From an uncultured Collinsella sp. (GTDB lineage Bacteria > Actinomycetota > Coriobacteriia > Coriobacteriales > Coriobacteriaceae): 64,000 nucleotides of DNA. A program made the position numbers and the translations under genes. Each line of letters starts with the position of its first letter. The first letter of the stretch is position 1. A model generated the notes under the pieces. It worked only from the letters and a program-made list of their open reading frames with translations, was not told the DNA's origin and ran no database searches. Shown piece after piece: positions 23,501 through 58,671 of the stretch. Location of the stretch: assembly GCA_900542175.1 (NCBI GenBank), contig UQNC01000001.1, forward strand, positions 6,831 through 70,830. The letters run 5' to 3'.

Positions 23501-24250
23501 ATGAGCGAAACGAATTCCAACGAGGTCGTCGTCAGCATTAAGAACCTCCAGAAATCCTTTGGCGACAATGTAGTCCTGCGCGATATCGATCTGGATGTGC
23601 ACAGGGGCGAGGTCGTCGTAGTCCTGGGTCCTTCGGGATCAGGTAAGTCGACGATGCTGCGCTGCATCAACCGCCTTGAAGAGCCTACGAGTGGCTCCAT
23701 CATGGTGGAAGGCGTGGATGTGTGCGCCAAGGGCGTCGACTTAAATAAGGTACGCACGCATCTTGGCATGGTGTTTCAGCAGTTCAACCTGTTCCCGCAC
23801 CTGTCGGTCAAAAAGAACGTCATGCTTGCCCAACAAAAGGTGCTCAAGCGCAGCAAGGAAGAAGCCGAGAAAATAGCCCTCGAGGAACTCACCAAGGTTG
23901 GCCTGGCCGAGCGCATCGACTTTATGCCGAGCCAGCTTTCGGGTGGCCAGCAGCAGCGCGTCGCCATTGCCCGCGCTTTGTCGATGAACCCGCACGTTAT
24001 GCTTTTTGACGAGGCCACGTCGGCGCTTGATCCCGAGCTCGTTCGCGACGTTTTGGGTGTTATGCGTGATTTGGCGCGCGACGGCATGACCATGATCGTC
24101 GTGACGCACGAGATGGGCTTTGCCCGCGACGTCGCCGACCGCGTGGTCTTTATGGACGGCGGCGTTATCGTGGAGGAGGGCTCGCCGAGCGAGGTCTTTG
24201 ACCATCCCAAGAGCGAGCGCACCAAGGCGTTCTTGGGCAACATTTCCTAG
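23501..24250 (+). CDS. amino-acid ABC transporter ATP-binding protein
   Basis: Walker [10 protein letters not shown], signature [15 protein letters not shown] and Walker [11 protein letters not shown]. Confidence 0.95.
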
Positions 24251-24454
24251 ATTGCATTGATATTTGAGCATAGTTTGAGTTGACGGGCCAAGGCGTTGCT
24301 GCCGCGGCCCGTTTTGTATTTTGGTAAAAGTCAGCCGTTACCCCCCAGTGGACGCTTAAGACGCATGTTTGGTGAATTCTGTGGACGCGGTACGGGGCGC
24401 GTGTCAACCATGCGGCCTTTCATACAATTGCATGTTGTTTGAAAAGAAGCCGGA

Positions 24455-24620
24455 CCGTGGGTGCGCTTGGCGCATAAAAGGGAACTGGGTGGGAATCCCA
24501 GACAAGGCGGTTACTGTGTGCGGGGATGTTGTCTTCGCGAGTCAGATTACTTGCCCACGGTCTTCTCGTGTCGAGGGTCTTTTGGAAGCCGCTGGATTCC
24601 GGTGAACAAGAGATGACATC
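24455..24620 (+). ncRNA. riboswitch-like leader, probably the cobalamin class, in the 517-nt 5' region of the surface-protein gene
   Basis: AAAAGGGAAcugGGUGGGAAUCCcag...GCGGUUACUGUG matches the cobalamin-aptamer core (AGGGAA / GGUG.GAAUCC / ...ACUGU). A B12-box-like GCCCACGG is present but the match is incomplete. Confidence 0.45.
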
Positions 24621-24767
24621 ATATATTGCTCCTATGCGTCCCGCCTGTTGTGCGGGCCATTGTTGTGTGCTGTCAGGTGCGGGCGCCCCGCTGTGTCTCG
24701 TTTCCCTTTACATGATCGGCCTCGATTCTTGTTGAGGTAATGATCTTCCAAATCAAGGGGGAGTGGG

Positions 24768-27700
24768 ATGCTCAAAAACATCCGAACTGTTGCGAGGAAA
24801 TTCCTCGTGGTGTTCATGGCGTTTATCTTTGCCAGCTCGAGCACCGGAATGACTGCATTTGCCGAGGAGGTGGGTGCGGGCGTAGCCGTGATGGCTGATC
24901 AGGTTGCCGCGGCGACCGATGCTGAGCAGGGTGCATCGAGCGAAGATGAACCTTCTGCCGATGCTGAAATCGGCGTGTCCGATGACGGCGACAGCGCACA
25001 GGAGCAAGAAGGCTCCGATACTGCCGTGCAGTCCGTTGTGTCCAACGGGGAGAATTCGGCCGCGCAGGCCGAAGTGGTCGGAGCTTCTACTGGGATAGCG
25101 CGCTCGGGCGAGACGGTTGTCGTCAACGACGCGGTCGATATGCCTTCGACCATCGAAGCCGGCGCTACCGTAAAACTCGGTGCGAACATTTCGATGGGTG
25201 CCGACCAGCAGATTGAGACCGTTGCCGGCGTGTTGGACGGTCAGGGTCATACCGTCACCATTAGCGGCAAGGCCGTCGCGAACAACGTAACGGGAACTAT
25301 CCAGAACCTAGGCGTGACGGGCTCCGTCTCGAATAGCGATAATGTGGGCTCCATCGCCATGACGCTTTCCGGTACCGTTCAGATGTGCTGGTCCACGGCG
25401 AGCGTGAACCTGAGCGGTTGGATGGGCTATGCCGGCGGCCTGGTCGGCGGCATGGCGTCCGGCAAGATCGTCAATTCCTATTTTGCCGGTTCGGGCGTCG
25501 AGATGAATGGCGGGCTGGTGGGCGAGGCCCGGGCTGGCTCGCTTTCGAATTGCCTCTATACCGTAGGTTTTTCGCCTGCCGAGATGAACTATAGGGGCTT
25601 TGATAAGGGTAATGCTGCGAAAGCCTCTGACCTTTACCTTTCGTCTGCCGAATCTCTTATCGTGCTCAATGCCAATGCGCCGGCGACCGGGTTTACCTGG
25701 ACGTCCAACGGCGGCCTGCCGATCTTGACGAGTGGATCTGCTCCCGTTGTCGTTAACAAGGATGCGCTCGCCGCTGCCATCGAGTCTGTCGAGGCGCTCA
25801 AGGAGTCCGACTATACATCCGATTCGTGGTCTGCCCTAGCCTCTGCCCTTGCGGACGCAAAGGCCGTAAACGACAATGCCGATGCCTCCCAGTCCGATGT
25901 AAATGCGGCGGTCAAGGCACTCAATGCGGCTAAGGATGCCCTCGAGAAGAAGAAGCCGACGGCCCCCGTCGCCCAGCCCGAGAGCGTCAAGCACATTAAA
26001 TCGCAGGACGACTTCATTTCTATGAACGTCAAGGACGCGAACAACTACTATGTGCTCGACAACGATATCGTGATTGATGATGAGTATTTCTTTGGTCCTT
26101 CGGGTGAGCTCAACTGCACGTTTGACGGCCAGGGCCACACCATTACCTTCAACAATGGCGGTGGCGTCAAGTCGCTCTTCGCGAGCGTCGGCTCCATCGG
26201 CGTTGTCCAAAACGTCTCTTTTGCCGGCGAGCTTAAGAAAGCGGTTGACGGCAAATCGTTCGGTCCGCTCGGCAACCAGATTAGGGGCGCCGTTCTCAAC
26301 TGCTCCACGTCTGTTACGGGCAAGGGCGTTGTGGGCTTTGGCCGTACGCTCGAAGGCGGCGTAATTTCTAACTGCGTGTCTACCGCTGCAGCGACCGGCG
26401 GCGTGCTCTTTGCGAGTTATGGCTCCGGTCAGCTCGTCAATACGTACTGGCAGGAAGGCCTTACCAACAAGGCTCAGTTCCCCGCGAGGGCGCTCGTCAA
26501 CTCCTATGCTGTCGATGCCGACGACATGAAGACGGCGACCTTTGTCGAAAACCTTAACGTCAACCGTGGCGAAAACGGTAGCGCATGGGGCATGGGAGCC
26601 GATGGCTTGCCGTATTTTGGTGAGGACCAGGACTACGAATCGCCCGAGAGCCCTGCCGCAAACAATAAATACGAGGTGACGTTTACATCTGCGCGCACCG
26701 GCAGGACCGTGACTGCCGCCGATGGCATGCTCTACCCGTCTCCCGACGATGTCGTGGTGGGCGAGAACGGTGCCGCCTGCGTCTCGGGCACGCTTGCGCT
26801 CAAGGGTTTGTCTAAGGGTGCTAAGGTGACTTGGGGCACTCCGGACGCTAACAGAGGAGATATCGCCGTTAACGAGGAAACGGGCCTGCTGCACGTATAC
26901 AACGATGCCGTGGGTACGGTGACCGCTACGCTTCATAAGGATGACGGCACCACCGAGAACGTTGCGACCGTCGTGGTGAAGGCGATCTCCAAGTCTATTG
27001 ATGATTTCCAGATTTGGTACAACGGCGAAAACGTGACGGGCGGCACTATTGCGGTTACGGGCTCCGAGGTCAAGAACCTCGAGATCCGTGTTCATTACGC
27101 CGACGCCGCTGAGGGCGAGTACACCCCTGTTTCCTATACGCGTTTTCGCTTTGCGGGTACGCCTTCGAACGTGCTCTATTCCAATCCCGGATCGGCATGC
27201 TTCTACTTTAAGCAGGCGGGCGAGGCCACGATTTCGGTCTCCTCGCGAACGAACGTCGACCTTGCCGATAAGAGCGTAAAGGTTACCTCGACCTATGTGC
27301 CGGCGACGAGCATTTCGCTTGGCTACAACGAGGACGGCAAGACTGTTTATCTGCATGGCCGTAATCCGCTTGCCAAGGGTGCTTTCCTGACCGACAAGGC
27401 TGCACCGGTTGTGGGCCCGGAGTATGCGAGTGACCGTGCAAACTACACGGTCACCTCGAGCGATAGTGCAGTCGCCGAGTACACTACAAGCGGCGATATT
27501 GGATTTACGCCGTATAAGGCCGGCAAGACGACATTCGAGGCGACGGTCGAAAACCAGGACGGCAGCGTTATCTCCTCGGGCAAGCGAGAGGTTACCTACG
27601 CTTACCGAAACCCGCTGAAATCGGTGACCATCGCAAATGCTCCCGCGTCCATTAAGGCCGGCAAGACGGTCGGGCTCGACCTGAGCTATGTGGGCGAGAA

Positions 27701-29315
27701 CGATGCCGAGGGCTGGAGTGTCTCCGAGCCCGGCATGATATGGACCGTGACGGGCGCAGATGGCCAGGATGCGTCGGATGCTGTGAGCATCGACCGTCGT
27801 GCTCTGGGTGACTGGAAGCACGTTGACGGTGCTCCCGACGACGGGCTGTTTGTAGCGAGCGGAACCTATGTTCTAACGGCCAACAAGGCCGGTACCTATA
27901 CGGTGACGGGTACTCCGGTCGACCAGACTGCCGGCGCCAAGGCCGTCTCCTTTGAGATTACGGTTGACGGTATCGCCGCCTCGCCGGATAACGAGGCGCA
28001 GGCCGATAAGGGTGCCCTCTCTGCCGCCAAGTACTTTGACGCCAACCGCACGACCGATGCGTACACCTATGGCCAGGAATGGGAAATCTACGCCTTCGCA
28101 AAATCGGGGCGCAAGATCGACGACGCGCTTATCAAGAATTACAAGAAGTCTCTTGCCGACCATAAGGCCGAGTGGGCCGGTAGCACCGCCAAGGTAACGG
28201 ATTGCGAGCGCGTTGCGCTTACGTTGGCTGCACTTGGCGAGAACATTACGTCTTTTGATGGCGTTAACCTTGCTGCCGTCATATGCTCGCACGGCGACCT
28301 TGCGGCTTCGGCGAATAACTTGGTCTATGCGTTGATCGCCCTTGACGAGGCGCGCGTTTCGGATGAAGCGCTGTCTGCATTCGGCTCGTCCTGGACACGT
28401 GCTCAGCTTGTTTGCACGCTGCTCACGTTCCAAAACTCGGATGGCGGCTTTACCATTGATACGGCTGGTGCAAGCAACGTCGATATGACCGCCATGGCGC
28501 TGCAGGCGCTTGCGCCCTATGTTGACGGCGACGCATGTGCCGCTGCCCTGGCTTCGAATGGTCAGCTCTCTGTTGCGTCCGCTGTCGACAAAGCGCTCGG
28601 CTTCCTTAAGGGGCGGATGAACGGTCTTTGCGATTTTGGGTCTGTTGAGTCGAATGCCCAGGTGCTGCTTGCTCTTGTGGCGCTCGGCAAGGACCCCGCA
28701 AATTCCAAGAACGGTTTTGCGACGGGCGCAAATAGTCTGATTACCGCGATTGCCGCCTATGAAGTTGCTGACGGCAAGGGATACGCTCACACCATGGGAT
28801 CAGACGGCAAACCCGGCAATGCCAACGCGCTTGCCACCGTGCAGGTCTTGCGGGCCCTTTCGGCCTATAAGTTCGCGGGTGCCGGCGTGAGTTGGACCAA
28901 GATCGGCAATGTGAAGGCCGGCACCGTCAAGCCGAGTGATCCTAAAGAGCCTGTGACGCCCGAGGTTCCCGTACCTACGGTTCCGACGAAGAACCCGACA
29001 CCTGCGGTTGTGCCGCCCGCCTCGCAGGATGGCAACGGCACCGGTGGAAAGCAGGGCGCTACCACTTCGCAGGATGGCGCGAAGCCGGAGACGGCGGAGC
29101 ACGCGGATTCCGCCAAGAGCGAATCCGGCAAGGAGTCTAGCTCTGACAAATCTTCTGGTTCGAAGGCGAAGAGCGCTACTGCCGCCGCATCGCGCAAGGA
29201 TGCCTCGGCTGGGCAGAGCGGCGTGAATCCTGTTGCCGTTGCCGGTGTCGTCGCTGGCATCGTGTGCCTTGCGGTCATTGGCGCGTGGTTCGTGCGTTCT
29301 CGTAAGAACGCGTAG
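24768..29315 (+). CDS. giant cell-surface protein (1515 aa): signal peptide, acidic linker, GLUG-like beta-helix repeats, FIVAR domain, Ig-like (Big) domains, alpha/alpha-toroid prenyltransferase-like repeats, Pro/Thr/Lys-rich stalk and C-terminal TM anchor
   Basis: GYAGGLVGG...NGGLVGEA (GLUG); FDGQGHT[IV] repeated; YTSDSWSALASALADAKAV (FIVAR); QNSDGGF (prenyltransferase/squalene-cyclase repeat); C-terminal VAVAGVVAGIVCLAVIGAWFVRSRKNA with no LPXTG. Confidence 0.85.
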   Translation: MLKNIRTVARKFLVVFMAFIFASSSTGMTAFAEEVGAGVAVMADQVAAATDAEQGASSEDEPSADAEIGVSDDGDSAQEQEGSDTAVQSVVSNGENSAAQAEVVGASTGIARSGETVVVNDAVDMPSTIEAGATVKLGANISMGADQQIETVAGVLDGQGHTVTISGKAVANNVTGTIQNLGVTGSVSNSDNVGSIAMTLSGTVQMCWSTASVNLSGWMGYAGGLVGGMASGKIVNSYFAGSGVEMNGGLVGEARAGSLSNCLYTVGFSPAEMNYRGFDKGNAAKASDLYLSSAESLIVLNANAPATGFTWTSNGGLPILTSGSAPVVVNKDALAAAIESVEALKESDYTSDSWSALASALADAKAVNDNADASQSDVNAAVKALNAAKDALEKKKPTAPVAQPESVKHIKSQDDFISMNVKDANNYYVLDNDIVIDDEYFFGPSGELNCTFDGQGHTITFNNGGGVKSLFASVGSIGVVQNVSFAGELKKAVDGKSFGPLGNQIRGAVLNCSTSVTGKGVVGFGRTLEGGVISNCVSTAAATGGVLFASYGSGQLVNTYWQEGLTNKAQFPARALVNSYAVDADDMKTATFVENLNVNRGENGSAWGMGADGLPYFGEDQDYESPESPAANNKYEVTFTSARTGRTVTAADGMLYPSPDDVVVGENGAACVSGTLALKGLSKGAKVTWGTPDANRGDIAVNEETGLLHVYNDAVGTVTATLHKDDGTTENVATVVVKAISKSIDDFQIWYNGENVTGGTIAVTGSEVKNLEIRVHYADAAEGEYTPVSYTRFRFAGTPSNVLYSNPGSACFYFKQAGEATISVSSRTNVDLADKSVKVTSTYVPATSISLGYNEDGKTVYLHGRNPLAKGAFLTDKAAPVVGPEYASDRANYTVTSSDSAVAEYTTSGDIGFTPYKAGKTTFEATVENQDGSVISSGKREVTYAYRNPLKSVTIANAPASIKAGKTVGLDLSYVGENDAEGWSVSEPGMIWTVTGADGQDASDAVSIDRRALGDWKHVDGAPDDGLFVASGTYVLTANKAGTYTVTGTPVDQTAGAKAVSFEITVDGIAASPDNEAQADKGALSAAKYFDANRTTDAYTYGQEWEIYAFAKSGRKIDDALIKNYKKSLADHKAEWAGSTAKVTDCERVALTLAALGENITSFDGVNLAAVICSHGDLAASANNLVYALIALDEARVSDEALSAFGSSWTRAQLVCTLLTFQNSDGGFTIDTAGASNVDMTAMALQALAPYVDGDACAAALASNGQLSVASAVDKALGFLKGRMNGLCDFGSVESNAQVLLALVALGKDPANSKNGFATGANSLITAIAAYEVADGKGYAHTMGSDGKPGNANALATVQVLRALSAYKFAGAGVSWTKIGNVKAGTVKPSDPKEPVTPEVPVPTVPTKNPTPAVVPPASQDGNGTGGKQGATTSQDGAKPETAEHADSAKSESGKESSSDKSSGSKAKSATAAASRKDASAGQSGVNPVAVAGVVAGIVCLAVIGAWFVRSRKNA

Positions 29316-29455
29316 CAATTCAATGCGCATTGCGCCCGCCGTTTGACGCGCGGGCGCGACTATGCCGCCCATGGCGCGACTTTACAGATGAACGGGCCCC
29401 GGGTCTAGACGACCTGGGGCCCGTTTGCGTTGCGGTTGGCGTGGCGATGGGAGTT

Positions 29456-55294: not shown

Positions 55295-56035
55295 TTAGGC
55301 AAACATGACCTGGTCGAACGTATAGAAGCCGGGTTCGCGGGTGACGAGCTTCTGCGCGGCTGCCAAGGCGCCGTTGACAAAGATCTGACGGCTCGTGGCG
55401 CGGTGGGTGAGCGTGACCTCCTCGTCCTGGCCAAAGAAACTCACCTCGTGCACGCCGGCGACGGTGCCGCCGCGCAGCGAGTGCATACCGATCTCCTTGG
55501 GGTCACGCGCGCCGCACATGCCCTCGCGACCGTAGACAGGATGATAACCAGCCTCGGGCTCGGCCTCGACCACGGCGTCGAGTAGCAGCTTGGCGGTGCC
55601 GCTGGGGGCATCGACCTTTTGGTTATGGTGTGTCTCGACGATTTCGCAGTCAAAGCCGGGCAGTTCGCGCGTGGCCTGTGCAACCAGATGGCGCAGGGCG
55701 GCGATGCCGATAGAGTAGTTGCCCGAGTGCATGACACGGGCATTCTGGCCCAGCTCGCGCAGGCGGTCCATCTGCTCAGGCGAATAGCCCGTGGTGCCGG
55801 AAACGAGTGCGGCGCCCGTGCGCTCGACATAGGCGACGACGGCATCGAAGGTCACGACGTTCGAGAAGTCGATGATGACGTCGGCTGCCGGGGCGCTCTC
55901 GAGATCGGACAGATCAAAACCGATCTGGGCGACGATATCAAAAACGGGCTGACCGGCGGCGTCGACAACGCCCTCGGCGGTGGTGCGGATGAGCGAGCCC
56001 ATGCGGCCCGTTCCCATAATGACGGTCTTAATCAA
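55295..56035 (-). CDS. dapB: 4-hydroxy-tetrahydrodipicolinate reductase
   Basis: IKTVIMGTGRMG Rossmann fold and DapB family core. Confidence 0.9.
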   Translation of the reverse strand: MIKTVIMGTGRMGSLIRTTAEGVVDAAGQPVFDIVAQIGFDLSDLESAPAADVIIDFSNVVTFDAVVAYVERTGAALVSGTTGYSPEQMDRLRELGQNARVMHSGNYSIGIAALRHLVAQATRELPGFDCEIVETHHNQKVDAPSGTAKLLLDAVVEAEPEAGYHPVYGREGMCGARDPKEIGMHSLRGGTVAGVHEVSFFGQDEEVTLTHRATSRQIFVNGALAAAQKLVTREPGFYTFDQVMFA

Positions 56036-56918
56036 GCAGACCAGCTCCCTTCAGAGCATCGGTAAGTGCGGCGCGCGCGTCGTCTGCCATGGGGCAAAGC
56101 GGCATGCGGTAGTTGGCTTCGATCATACCCATCTGGGCGAGTGCCTCCTTGACGGGGATGGGGTTGACCTCGCTAAAGAGGGCGTTGATGAGCGGCTGGC
56201 CGGCAATCTGGATGTCGCGGGCACGTGCCACGTCGCCGTCCAGGTAGGCGCGGCACATGTCGTGCACGAGCTGCGGCTGAACATCGGCCCACACGCTGAT
56301 GGTGCCCGAGGCCCCCAAGCTCATGAGCGGTACGGTGAGCGCGTCCTCGCCCGAGTACATGCGGAAGTCGTCGGACAGCAGGTGGGCGATCTTGGCCGTG
56401 TAGGCGACGTTGCCCGAGGCTTCCTTAATACCCATGATGTTGGGGTGCGCGGCCAGGCGCTCTACGTTGCGCTCGCTGATGCCGCAGCCGCATCGGCCGG
56501 GGATGTTGTACAGGATGCAGGGGATGTCCACGGCATCCGCTACGGTCTTAAAGTGCTGGTAGATACCCTCTTCGTTAGACTTGTTGTAGTAGGGGGTAAT
56601 GAGCAGCAGACCGTCGGCGCCCAGGCCTTGGTAGGTGAGCGACTTGGTGAGCATGGTCTGCGTGGAGTTAGAGCCCGAGCCTGCAATGACGGGGACGCGT
56701 CCTGCAACCTGCTTGACCACGGCGGCGACGACGGAGTTGTCCTCGTCATCGGTCATCGTGGCGCTCTCGCCGGTGGTGCCCAGGGTGAGGATGGCGTCGG
56801 TGCCATTTTGCAGGTGGAAATCGATAAGGCGCTCGAGCGCGTCGAAGTCGACGCTGCCGTCCTTTTTAAACGGTGTGACGAGGGCGACGATTGAGCCCTC
56901 GAGATTGCGGATGTCCAT
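56028..56918 (-). CDS. dapA: 4-hydroxy-tetrahydrodipicolinate synthase
   Basis: Internal ATG preceded by an AAGGAG RBS; TPF, GTTGE and the Schiff-base K-region; 296 aa. In frame with upstream lysA with no intervening stop codon. Confidence 0.85.
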   Translation of the reverse strand: MDIRNLEGSIVALVTPFKKDGSVDFDALERLIDFHLQNGTDAILTLGTTGESATMTDDEDNSVVAAVVKQVAGRVPVIAGSGSNSTQTMLTKSLTYQGLGADGLLLITPYYNKSNEEGIYQHFKTVADAVDIPCILYNIPGRCGCGISERNVERLAAHPNIMGIKEASGNVAYTAKIAHLLSDDFRMYSGEDALTVPLMSLGASGTISVWADVQPQLVHDMCRAYLDGDVARARDIQIAGQPLINALFSEVNPIPVKEALAQMGMIEANYRMPLCPMADDARAALTDALKGAGLLD

Positions 56919-58337
56919 GTTCTTCTCCTTCGCTTCCGCGATCTGGATGCGTTTGTTCCATTGGGCGGCGACGGCCAGGCGCTCGTCTTGGACGCGACGA
57001 CGAGCACTTTCGGCGCGCGACTTTGCCAGCAGCTCGCGGCCGCACGGCAGCACGTCGAGCGTGGCAAAGTAATCGCCCGGACGCTCGGCGCGACGAATGA
57101 GATCTGCCGAGCCGTCGGGGCGCAGCAATACCTCGGCGGAGCGCAGACGGCCGTTGTAGTTGTAGCCCATGGAGTAGCCATGCGCGCCGGTATCGTGGAT
57201 CACGAGTACATCACCCATGTCGATCTGCGGCAGCTCGCGGTCGATAGCGAACTTATCGTTGTTCTCGCACAAGTTGCCCGTGATGTCATACGTGTTCGTA
57301 ACCGGTGCTGCGGTCTTGTCAGGGCCACCCGGCTGTCCCATCACCGTAATGTGGTGGTAGGCACCATACATAGCGGGACGAATGAGGTCGACGGCGCTTG
57401 CGTCCACGCCGATATAGTCCTTGTAAATCTGCTTCTCGTGGATGGCCTTGGTGACCAGGCATCCGTAGGGGCCCATCATAAAGCGACCCATCTCGGTGCA
57501 GATGGCCACATCGCCCATGCCGGCGGGGACCAGAATCTCGTCGTAGGCTGCGTGTACGCCCTCGCCGATGGCGTGGATGTCGTTAGCCTGCTGCTCGGGC
57601 AGGTAGGGGATACCCACACCGCCGGACAGATTGATAAAGGCGACATGTGCGCCGGTCTCGCGCTCCAGGCGCACGGCAAGCTCAAAGAGGATGCGCGCAA
57701 GCTTGGGGTAGTAGTCGTTGGTGACGGTGTTGCTGGCAAGGAAGGCGTGGATACCAAAGTCCTCGGCGCCCTTGGCCTTGAGCGTGCGGAAGGCCTCGAA
57801 GAGCTGCTCGGTGGTCATGCCGTATTTGGAGTCGCCGGGGTTATCCATGATGCCATTGGAGAGCTGGAACAGGCCGCCCGGATTAAAACGGCAGCTGACC
57901 GTCTTGGGAATGGGGCCTGCGACGCGCTCGAAGAACTCGATGTGGCTGATGTCGTCAAAGTTGACGATGGCACCCAGCTTGTCGGCGAGCTCAAAGTCCG
58001 CCGCCGGCGTGTCGTTGGATGAGAACATGATGTCGTGTCCCGTGATGCCCAGCGAGCGGGCGATCATAAGCTCGGTATAGCTCGAGCAATCGCAGCCGCA
58101 GCCGTATTCGTTGAGAATGGAGATGAGCGCCGGGTTGGGATTGGCCTTGACGGCAAAGTACTCCTTAAAGCCCGGGTTCCATGCAAAGGCGTCGCGCACT
58201 TCCTGCATGTTGCGGCGGATGCCCGCCTCGTCGTATAGATGAAACGGCGTGGGAAACTGCTCGACGATATGCTCGAGCGTTTCCTTGTCCACAAACGGCT
58301 GCTTGGCCGCATATGCCTCGTTGGGGGTCAATGCCAT
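56919..58337 (-). CDS. lysA: diaminopimelate decarboxylase (reads through into dapA; no stop codon before the dapA start)
   Basis: FAVKANPNPALI PLP site and GAHGYSMGYNYNG C-terminal motifs, then about 45 extra residues that continue in frame into dapA. Confidence 0.85.
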
Positions 58338-58379: not shown

Positions 58380-58570
58380 GAATCCGCATAGCGTGGACCC
58401 AATGTCCGGATAGCGCTCCCGCATTGCTGCAGACAGTCCTGCGGGTGTTTCCCGCAGGCCCACCAGGTTGTTCGTGCCTGAAAAACCCAATTCGGCGGGT
58501 TTCGCCTCCCCGCGGGGTCAAAGCCTGCCGGCTCGCCCGCGGCTCTTCGTGCCCGCGCCTCTATCAAGTG
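58380..58570 (-). ncRNA. lysine riboswitch (L-box) in the leader of lysA-dapA-dapB-dapH
   Basis: On the minus strand: AGAGGCGC...GGGGAGGCGAAACCCGCCGAA...ACUGUC...GGGAGCGCUAUCC. These match the L-box elements (AGAGGUGC / GGGGAGCG..CGCCGAAG / CUGUCA / GGAGGGCUAUC of B. subtilis lysC). Confidence 0.65.
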
Positions 58571-58671
58571 GTAACGACCCTACCACGTTGCACTTTACCA
58601 AACAAGAGTATTCGTATATAACGTTTAAAAAATGCAGGGATATGCTAGAAACAAGGGCGTCACAATTCTGC

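Follow-up and report, generated by a model that had tools for sequence, protein, structure and literature searches.

What lies in the unusually long leader of a giant surface-protein gene in Collinsella, and what might the protein have to do with the ligand of the RNA found there? The gene encodes 1515 amino acids (aa) and lies in a 64-kb stretch of contig UQNC01000001.1 from an uncultured Collinsella sp., hereafter called the window. Its leader runs for 517 nucleotides (nt) from the stop codon of an upstream ABC-ATPase gene at 24250 to the ATG at 24768, in line with the original prediction, made from the sequence alone, that this intergenic region was exceptionally long. The same prediction placed a candidate cobalamin riboswitch here. 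The candidate was put to Rfam by running cmscan at gathering thresholds on the whole window, which revealed two riboswitches, a lysine riboswitch elsewhere in the window and a match to the Cobalamin family, RF00174, at 24442-24572 on the plus strand. The latter scored 44.0 bits against a threshold of 31.5 (E-value 8.9e-8 for the 64-kb window), spanned the full model (positions 1-189) and reached an E-value of 8.6e-10 when the leader was scanned alone. A permissive rescan of 24200-24820 (E <= 10) detected no second credible RNA family in the leader.

The individual elements of the aptamer were in their expected places. The string AAAAGGGAACTGGGTGGGAATCCCAG...GCGGTTACTGTG, previously read as the conserved cobalamin core, was located at 24477-24519, inside the RF00174 match, and that reading stands. 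The J3/4 GGGAA, the L4 GGUG..AAUCC loop, the ACUG and the B12 box all fall within 24477-24556 and were invariant in 16 orthologous leaders. An imperfect B12 box had been suspected in GCCCACGG (24552-24559). An imperfect box is present, but the proper box is AGUCAGAUUACUUGCC (24541-24556), which departs from the consensus AGCCAGGAGACCUGCC at five positions; in the Rfam alignment GCCCACGG is made up of the end of this box and the 3' strand of the closing helix. The alignment also showed that approximately 61 model positions of the peripheral P6 extension are replaced by 12 nt, and the P6 hairpin was even shorter in the Collinsella orthologs than in the window. The large P6 extension that is the hallmark of class-I (adenosylcobalamin, AdoCbl) riboswitches is absent, and for this reason we regard the aptamer as a compact, class-II-like form, whose architecture, judged by sequence, resembles that of a class-II cobalamin riboswitch. 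Cobalamin aptamers of this compact form, with no peripheral extension, are reported to be a functional class (Johnson and colleagues, 2012), whose class-IIa members reportedly prefer methyl- or hydroxocobalamin.

To measure conservation, sixteen orthologous Collinsella leaders were aligned and their identity to the window sequence was determined. The mean identity was 94% over the aptamer, 62% over the 43 columns just upstream and 86% over the expression platform, in genomes whose proteins differ by about 15%. The orthologous leaders reached 38-47.5 bits against RF00174, all above the Rfam threshold. The closing helix showed one clear compensatory change, alignment columns 61:163 holding A-U in nine leaders, G-C in five and a mismatch in two, and the P6 stem varied in length and sequence between lineages with its pairing kept. 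Most other aptamer pairs were invariant, as the available sequences all came from close Collinsella relatives. Collectively, these results identify 24442-24572 as a genuine cobalamin riboswitch aptamer, an ordinary member of a well-known class in a compact form.

The read-out of the aptamer was examined by folding the leader. In the minimum free energy (MFE) fold, the Rfam-like aptamer was kept and the strand 24693-24709 paired with 24755-24771, which holds the Shine-Dalgarno (SD) sequence and the AUG, in a helix of 17 base pairs of about -18.7 kcal/mol. The core of this anti-SD strand, UUUCCCUUU, was invariant in the Collinsella orthologs. When the SD and AUG were forced free in a constrained fold, CCCUU and ACAU of the same strand paired instead with 24568-24577, just 3' of the aptamer, and this alternative was also the pairing selected by RNAalifold on the ortholog alignment. 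The segment 3' of the aptamer can in addition form a local hairpin, 24564-24576. A second possible contact involves GCCGCU (24588-24593), which is complementary to GGCGGU in L5 (24506-24511) and for which a duplex calculation was carried out. A terminator scan of the Collinsella leader returned no convincing intrinsic terminator, only weak hairpins with poor T-runs, and translational control is favoured on this ground. Simple transcription termination was considered and is disfavoured, since these hairpins are weak compared with the strong intrinsic terminator found at the corresponding position in a Sporosarcina relative (L059); the presence of that terminator indicates that the riboswitch read-out differs between lineages.

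Most likely, the switch works by favouring the helix that buries the SD and AUG over the alternative pairing of the CCCUUU segment with 24568-24577, and control would be at translation. The ligand-bound aptamer would hold the 3'-flanking segment in the local hairpin 24564-24576, possibly assisted by a kissing contact between L5 (24506-24511) and GCCGCU (24588-24593). The freed anti-SD strand (24693-24709) would then bury the ribosome-binding site (RBS; 24755-24771). Plentiful intracellular corrinoid would in this way switch off the one gene. Our working model is thus probably a kinetic, co-transcriptional and translational OFF switch. Set beside other RF00174 riboswitches (clan CL00101), the element shares the full-model match, the GGGAA / GGUG-GAAUCC / ACUG core, the B12 box, the closing helix, the same-strand position in a 5' leader and the expected OFF switching. 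It differs from the family norm in its 12-nt P6 hairpin and several B12-box substitutions, in a long platform (195 nt) that appears to sequester the RBS and has no clear terminator, and in its target, which is a giant surface-protein gene rather than a biosynthesis or transporter operon.

The protein under this control has a signal-like hydrophobic segment at its N-terminus and a second hydrophobic segment near its C-terminus (aa 1483-1512), which is followed by RSRKNA. A motif search of its 1515 aa found no LPXTG-type sorting motif. The earlier description of a huge, sortase-independent surface protein anchored by a transmembrane (TM) helix is therefore upheld, and these signals match the secreted, surface-anchored design of the predicted toroid/SLBB scavengers, introduced below. 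The only Pfam match in the protein was a FIVAR domain. The AlphaFold2 model of residues 1071-1383 was an all-helical alpha/alpha toroid with a mean predicted local distance difference test (pLDDT) score of 91.6, confirming that one large domain has this fold. Conserved across 66 family members were the motif D-x-TAMALQALAP (D1239...P1250) and residues W1105, Y1125, E1294, Q1298 and H1341. Since the linker and the TM anchor follow the toroid, this domain lies closest to the membrane, with the beta-helices farthest from it. After export, the protein would stay attached to the Collinsella membrane through its C-terminal TM helix, on a flexible linker of approximately 100 aa.

Towards the N-terminus the protein carries two beta-helix modules, which align with each other at 22% identity. 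A word-indexed homolog search with the N-terminal module gave only five fragments; when 1.84 billion cluster representatives were searched exhaustively with HMMER, the total was still only 132 relatives. Most homologs contained two matched stretches, with a full-length first copy passing the filter in about 18. Among the 76 relatives of at least 900 aa, a toroid was present in 62 and a DUF4430 domain in 36. By this co-occurrence, the beta-helix modules together with the toroid mark out a single coherent family that has neither a name nor an NCBIfam model. About half of the family, the Collinsella protein included, is without DUF4430. The modules also resemble carbohydrate-active beta-helices and adhesins such as PfbA and SRRP. 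With the IgA1 proteases (M26; PDB 3n6z, 7uvk, 7jgj) the protein shares the N-terminal beta-helix module alone, and the version of the module seen here is almost confined to toroid giants. A protease function, suggested by this likeness, was rejected because no HExxH motif occurs anywhere in the protein; an M26 protease domain was also not found.

Toroid relatives were found in at least 575 confirmed stretches of GTDB contigs (one genome per species), and 39 non-Collinsella loci were scanned with Rfam for a riboswitch up to 6 kb upstream on the same strand. A cobalamin-clan riboswitch was present in that position in 21 of the 39 loci, ending in 16 of these within about 230 nt before the toroid open reading frame (ORF; 620-1860 aa). 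Three further loci had a riboswitch just downstream on the same strand and one had its sole riboswitch on the opposite strand; another locus (L072) carried an additional second copy on the opposite strand. Overall, the upstream same-strand quadrant held 22 of 27 riboswitch matches (binomial p about 1e-9, although such p-values are overstated because related loci are phylogenetically non-independent). By chance, such a riboswitch would be expected at about 0.3% of loci, given 2.7 sites per genome (density from PMC3766115). The pattern was seen in Lachnospiraceae, Oscillospiraceae, Eubacterium, Sporosarcina and Pilibacter, and many of the Firmicutes copies scored 90-120 bits, compared with 44 for the window.

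The architectures of these relatives link the toroid to a second domain. The toroid giants carry DUF4430, the Pfam family to which the transcobalamin beta-domain belongs, and in addition SLH, FIVAR, Big_2 or collagen-like anchors and spacers; relatives are anchored by SLH domains or PKTG-type sorting signals. A profile of the bacterial DUF4430 copies had a single PDB match, the transcobalamin beta-domain, at a weak E-value of 0.43. A Eubacterium protein of 1655 aa (L028), colinear with and 38% identical to residues 124-1391 of the window protein, has its own 95.6-bit riboswitch and a DUF4430 after the toroid; this position is occupied in the Collinsella protein by the low-complexity linker and TM anchor. 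In the Sporosarcina locus, the riboswitch and terminator are followed by a giant of 1692 aa with two DUF4430 domains, a toroid and SLH, then by a DUF4430 protein, CbiQ and a double ABC ATPase. Pseudoflavonifractor (L049) offers a precedent for DUF4430 supplied in trans: its giant has no such domain, and a separate DUF4430 protein is encoded after it. Within Collinsella, the toroid was identical (100%) in several metagenome-assembled genomes, and that of a C. aerofaciens isolate shared 97% identity with it. Two further contigs are probably mis-binned Collinsella contigs: L003, labelled 'uncultured Ruminococcus sp.', and L021, labelled 'Acutalibacteraceae bacterium', whose toroids are 100% and 79% identical, respectively, to that of the window and whose leaders are Collinsella-like. 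The nearest relatives of the Collinsella protein are clostridial, which suggests an old horizontal transfer.

On balance, we judge that the 1515-aa protein probably serves corrinoid acquisition at the cell surface. A genomic link to B12 uptake or regulation is provided by its own riboswitch, by the 21 of 39 family loci and by the energy-coupling factor (ECF)-type CbiQ/ATPase operon of Sporosarcina. We propose that the toroid would be the corrinoid-binding module, homologous to the toroids fused to transcobalamin-type DUF4430/SLBB domains in Firmicutes, and that the distal part (two beta-helices, FIVAR and the Ig-like region) would be a stalk, a macromolecule-binding surface or both. Production would be expected when B12 is limiting, and the protein would gather corrinoids or their precursors at the surface for an importer encoded elsewhere. 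The original prediction of riboswitch-regulated corrinoid capture was largely right on identity and named a function that the sequences make plausible, but it overstated the novelty. It is not a new kind of system, because Burroughs, Balaji, Iyer and Aravind, who defined the SLBB superfamily in 2007, already predicted that Gram-positive toroid/SLBB surface proteins scavenge B12, and described operons with CbiQ and CbiO-like genes in genomes often without B12 biosynthesis (PMC1796856). The word 'riboswitch' does not occur in that paper. Our literature searches returned no experimental study of toroid/SLBB surface proteins and no paper linking them to a cobalamin riboswitch. The surface-anchored layout, the toroid, FIVAR and Ig-type accessory domains are shared with the proteins of Burroughs et al., and relatives of the window protein carry DUF4430 and adjoin CbiQ/CbiO-type genes. 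The Collinsella protein differs in being without SLBB/DUF4430 or a neighbouring transporter and in its Coriobacteriia host, and its twin IgA1-protease-like beta-helices are not among the architectures described in the consulted sections of PMC1796856. It is a TM-anchored, actinobacterial variant without the transcobalamin-type beta-domain or a linked transporter.

Several observations weigh against riboswitch-controlled corrinoid capture. On the RNA side, a kinetic, co-transcriptional mechanism must be assumed because the SD-sequestered state is the MFE state even without ligand, covariation cannot test the switching helices because their strands are almost invariant, and the fold of the whole leader was no more stable than that of shuffled sequence (z = -0.94). 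Among the related loci, Rfam found no riboswitch in 14 of 39, three of them with an ORF that is cut off by the end of the locus, and the non-independence of the loci noted above applies here too. On the protein side, the nearest neighbours of the toroid in structure and sequence were squalene-hopene and drimenyl-diphosphate cyclases, not cobalamin carriers. Neither Pfam nor a hidden Markov model (HMM) built from relatives found DUF4430 in the window protein or in the six-frame translation of the 64 kb, and no toroid occurs with SLBB in one protein or operon within the window; transcobalamin clamps B12 between its toroid and its beta-domain. Lastly, no B12 transporter or B12-dependent enzyme was present among the 25 window ORFs scanned with Pfam.

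The likeness to animal cobalamin carriers must be read with these points in mind. According to the model, the window protein has the alpha6/alpha6 toroid domain of transcobalamin, intrinsic factor and haptocorrin (PF01122 + DUF4430), so the earlier placement in their fold class holds, but other structures are closer. PF01122 did not match the window toroid, the protein has no beta-domain, and the toroid is embedded in a multidomain protein of 1515 aa. Alone, the toroid gave no Pfam match at E <= 10 and no match in a PDB sequence search, and the profile of its family matched cyclase repeats only. PF01122 (Cobalamin_bind) was matched by two of the 66 toroid-family members (best E 2.7e-4) and by none of the ten DUF4430-bearing members that were rescanned. 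BtuG is a beta-propeller lipoprotein that works with the outer-membrane transporter BtuB. To Bacteroides BtuG/BtuH the likeness is functional only: the proposed job, riboswitch-regulated corrinoid capture at the surface of a gut anaerobe ahead of a transporter, is the same, whereas the architecture is unrelated, the window protein being a Gram-positive, TM-anchored toroid protein and not a family member.

The main rival to corrinoid capture is a B12-starvation-induced adhesin or capture device that does not bind corrinoid, with another role for the toroid. Its targets would be B12-producing neighbours, mucus, host B12 carriers or IgA, and we consider it unlikely in this form. The beta-helices that are closest to IgA1-protease N-terminal domains, carbohydrate-active beta-helices and the adhesins PfbA and SRRP would suit such a device, as would FIVAR, a typical adhesin module, and DUF4430 is absent and the fold search does not favour transcobalamin. 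Cobalamin riboswitches are also known to control non-binders, for instance isozymes of B12-dependent enzymes (PMC3766115). The toroid, however, tracks with riboswitches and DUF4430 even in small proteins free of beta-helices, as in an operon (L064) described below, and the beta-helix is hardly ever seen in the absence of the toroid (62 of the 76 long matches have both), which argues for one integrated function.

It is less probable still that the toroid binds cobinamide, an incomplete corrinoid or another tetrapyrrole such as heme, with B12 acting only as the regulatory signal. Rodionov et al. list C. aerofaciens, which has cob genes, among the strains with a reported B12 requirement, possibly because the early steps to precorrin-2 are missing (PMC6593275), which makes salvage of precursors plausible. 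Known B12 importers also carry cobinamide (PMC6593275, which cites Wexler et al. 2018 for import of both), and heme uptake in L. sakei has been proposed in a preprint to run through an ECF-like system that includes a 'transcobalamin-like' component (10.1101/864751). Yet the riboswitch link and the homology of DUF4430 to the transcobalamin beta-domain point first to corrinoids.

The cyclase likeness raises a third possibility, which we regard as very improbable: the toroid would act as an enzyme outside the cell, of a class-II terpene-cyclase/prenyltransferase-like or a glycan-active (alpha/alpha)6 kind, and be linked to the riboswitch only indirectly. Squalene-hopene cyclase and other class-II terpene cyclases gave the top profile and structure matches, and the repeat motifs DGGF and DxD-TA are shared. 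Their DxDD acid motif, however, aligns to NVDM in the window protein (NVDMTA), with the first and third Asp lost, and their active site is formed between two toroids, whereas the window protein has a single toroid of approximately 310 aa. The window toroid is also secreted, and its genomic context is B12 and not isoprenoids; extracellular isoprenoid chemistry has no evident B12-regulon link, unlike the DUF4430 fusion. We think it just as improbable that the aptamer is a decaying relic of a gene acquired from Firmicutes that no longer regulates: its modest 44 bits, imperfect B12 box, missing P6 extension and lack of a convincing terminator would fit decay, but no other part of the leader is as well conserved among Collinsella species whose proteins diverge by about 15%, its helices are kept through compensatory and remodelling changes, and compact aptamers without the extension are a functional class (class II, summarised in PMC11477304, where class-IIa members are described as preferring methyl- or hydroxocobalamin).

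Corrinoid capture thus remains our preferred reading, and the related loci yielded further observations. In L064 (3234-11234), a cobalamin riboswitch heads an operon that encodes a 615-aa DUF4430 protein and a 354-aa toroid-only protein, together with a MoxR-type AAA ATPase, a DUF58 protein and a transglutaminase-like membrane protein, a partner set unlike the ECF genes of Sporosarcina. In Pilibacter termitis (L080, 2634-2711), the aptamer preceding a 1556-aa toroid giant with DUF4430, FIVAR and collagen repeats is not RF00174 but AdoCbl-II (RF01689, 41.6 bits), so that different classes of cobalamin aptamer have been recruited to the same gene family. In Clostridia, a protein of approximately 270-300 aa with BspA-type leucine-rich repeats (LRR_5) and no obvious signal peptide adjoins toroid giants, with five such genes in the fetched loci (L044 7708-8925; L041 7975-9309; L054 2097-3468; L050 8655-11189; L032 2277-1073, minus strand). 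Four of the five have their own cobalamin riboswitch directly 5' of the gene, and in L050 an HNH_repeat gene intervenes. This protein is a recurrent, unexplained member of the B12 regulon in Clostridia; a dedicated HMM did not find it in the six-frame translation of the Collinsella window. In L054, tandem cobalamin riboswitches (2097-2282 and 2348-2533; 109.8 and 91.3 bits) precede the LRR_5 gene, a toroid giant of 1295 aa and a second giant of 1352 aa with Big_2. Small HNH_repeat proteins (PF18780) are encoded directly 3' of cobalamin riboswitches in L058 (1065-2351) and L050 (8655-10382), before a 2031-aa toroid giant and the LRR_5 gene, respectively. Finally, a ROOL RNA (RF03087, 367 bits; L045, 8606-9185) lies approximately 160 nt past the end of a riboswitch-free toroid giant of 1861 aa.

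A bolder and rather doubtful extension is that the toroid giants form the core of a surface apparatus of Gram-positive gut bacteria, induced by B12 limitation. In it, a toroid ancestral to that of transcobalamin would bind corrinoid alone or with a separate DUF4430 partner, the family-specific, IgA1-protease-like beta-helices would seize corrinoid-loaded macromolecules, and the riboswitch-controlled BspA-type LRR proteins would be included. The macromolecules would be, for example, host haptocorrin or intrinsic factor, or the carriers of other microbes. If true, the apparatus would amount to B12 piracy analogous to that of Bacteroides BtuG, built from entirely different parts.

The coordinates of the features are collected in Table 1. 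Upstream of the leader, Pfam identified SBP_bac_3, permease and ABC ATPase genes, an amino-acid ABC transporter operon closed by the terminator-like hairpin at 24284-24324, which sets the 5' boundary of the transcription unit. Of the promoter-like site, the -10 motif CATA[C/A]AAT was retained in all 16 Collinsella leaders, and the sequence farther upstream diverges. The genes 3' of the 1515-aa ORF, flavodoxin and DUF3793, are convergent and both on the minus strand; the hairpin between the convergent genes was not flagged by the simple terminator scan because its T-run is short. The terminator-like hairpin, the promoter-like site and the convergent downstream genes together indicate that the riboswitch controls one gene only. 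A 46-codon, Cys-rich upstream ORF in the platform (24613-24753, plus strand), whose ATG at 24613 is preceded by AAGAG, was considered as well; it is probably non-coding, as its frame is broken by indels among the Collinsella leaders.

Table 1. Features of the leader, the 1515-aa surface-protein gene and its surroundings (window coordinates).
Feature	Coordinates	Strand	Basis and remarks
Terminator-like hairpin, CGGGCC...GGCCCG + T-run	24284..24324	+	Sequence reading; inner part flagged by terminator scan
Promoter-like site, -35 GTGTCA / 16-nt spacer / -10 TACAAT	24401..24428	+	Consensus scan; putative, unmapped
Cobalamin aptamer, compact form	24442..24572	+	RF00174, 44.0 bits; P6 region a short hairpin
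L5 loop GGCGGU, candidate kissing-loop partner	24506..24511	+	Rfam alignment; invariant in orthologs; pairing putative
Expression platform, 195 nt	24573..24767	+	86% conserved in Collinsella; two mutually exclusive pairings for CCCUUU segment
Candidate P13/L13 hairpin, GGAA/UUCC stem, loop GCCGCUGGA	24584..24600	+	Sequence reading; loop invariant in orthologs; putative
Anti-Shine-Dalgarno strand GUGUCUCGUUUCCCUUU	24693..24709	+	MFE folds, constrained fold, duplex energies, RNAalifold
Shine-Dalgarno AAGGGGGAG (24755-24763) and start ATG (24768-24770)	24755..24770	+	Conserved in Collinsella orthologs
Surface-protein gene, 1515 aa, monocistronic	24768..29315	+	
Signal peptide, ~aa 1-32, ...TGMTAFA/EE	24768..24863	+	Hydropathy and sequence reading; putative cleavage site
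Beta-helix module 1, aa ~105-325	25080..25742	+	Paralog of module 2; shared motif DGQGHT[VI]T
FIVAR domain, aa 331-393	25758..25946	+	Pfam PF07554, 35.8 bits vs 29.2 cut-off
Beta-helix module 2, aa 405-625, right-handed	25980..26642	+	Closest: N-terminal domain of IgA1 proteases
Beta-rich, presumably immunoglobulin (Ig)-like region, aa ~630-1070	26655..27977	+	Colinear with homolog regions matching Big_2; no Pfam match of its own
Alpha/alpha toroid, aa 1071-1383	27978..28916	+	AlphaFold2, fold searches, family conservation
Low-complexity Ser/Ala/Pro/Lys/Thr-rich linker, aa 1386-1482	28923..29213	+	Composition; presumably spans cell wall
C-terminal transmembrane anchor, aa 1483-1512, basic tail	29214..29303	+	Hydropathy scan
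GC-rich hairpin CGGGCCCCGGGTC...GACCTGGGGCCCG between convergent genes	29393..29423		Sequence reading; possible bidirectional terminator

The second riboswitch in the window, for lysine (RF00168, 78.4 bits), lies on the minus strand at 58403-58571 and precedes a single ORF of 769 aa (56028-58337, minus strand). In this ORF a pyridoxal-phosphate decarboxylase of LysA/Orn-DAP-Arg type (aa 39-384) is joined to a dihydrodipicolinate synthase, DapA (aa 479-763), an arrangement that suggests either a lysA-dapA fusion or in-frame read-through of two genes.

Rodionov et al. describe the transport of B12 and its precursors in many gut genomes as an open problem (PMC6593275). The toroid giants provide a concrete, testable candidate family for corrinoid acquisition at the surface of Gram-positive gut bacteria. 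Their pattern crosses phyla: a cobalamin riboswitch stands directly before the giants, and roughly one giant in two carries the transcobalamin beta-domain as a fusion. It was proposed in 2007 that the transcobalamin and intrinsic factor of animals arose from bacterial proteins of this kind, and the family offers a route to testing that idea. Since Collinsella is common in the gut and C. aerofaciens is reported to require B12, the protein could matter in the competition for this vitamin.

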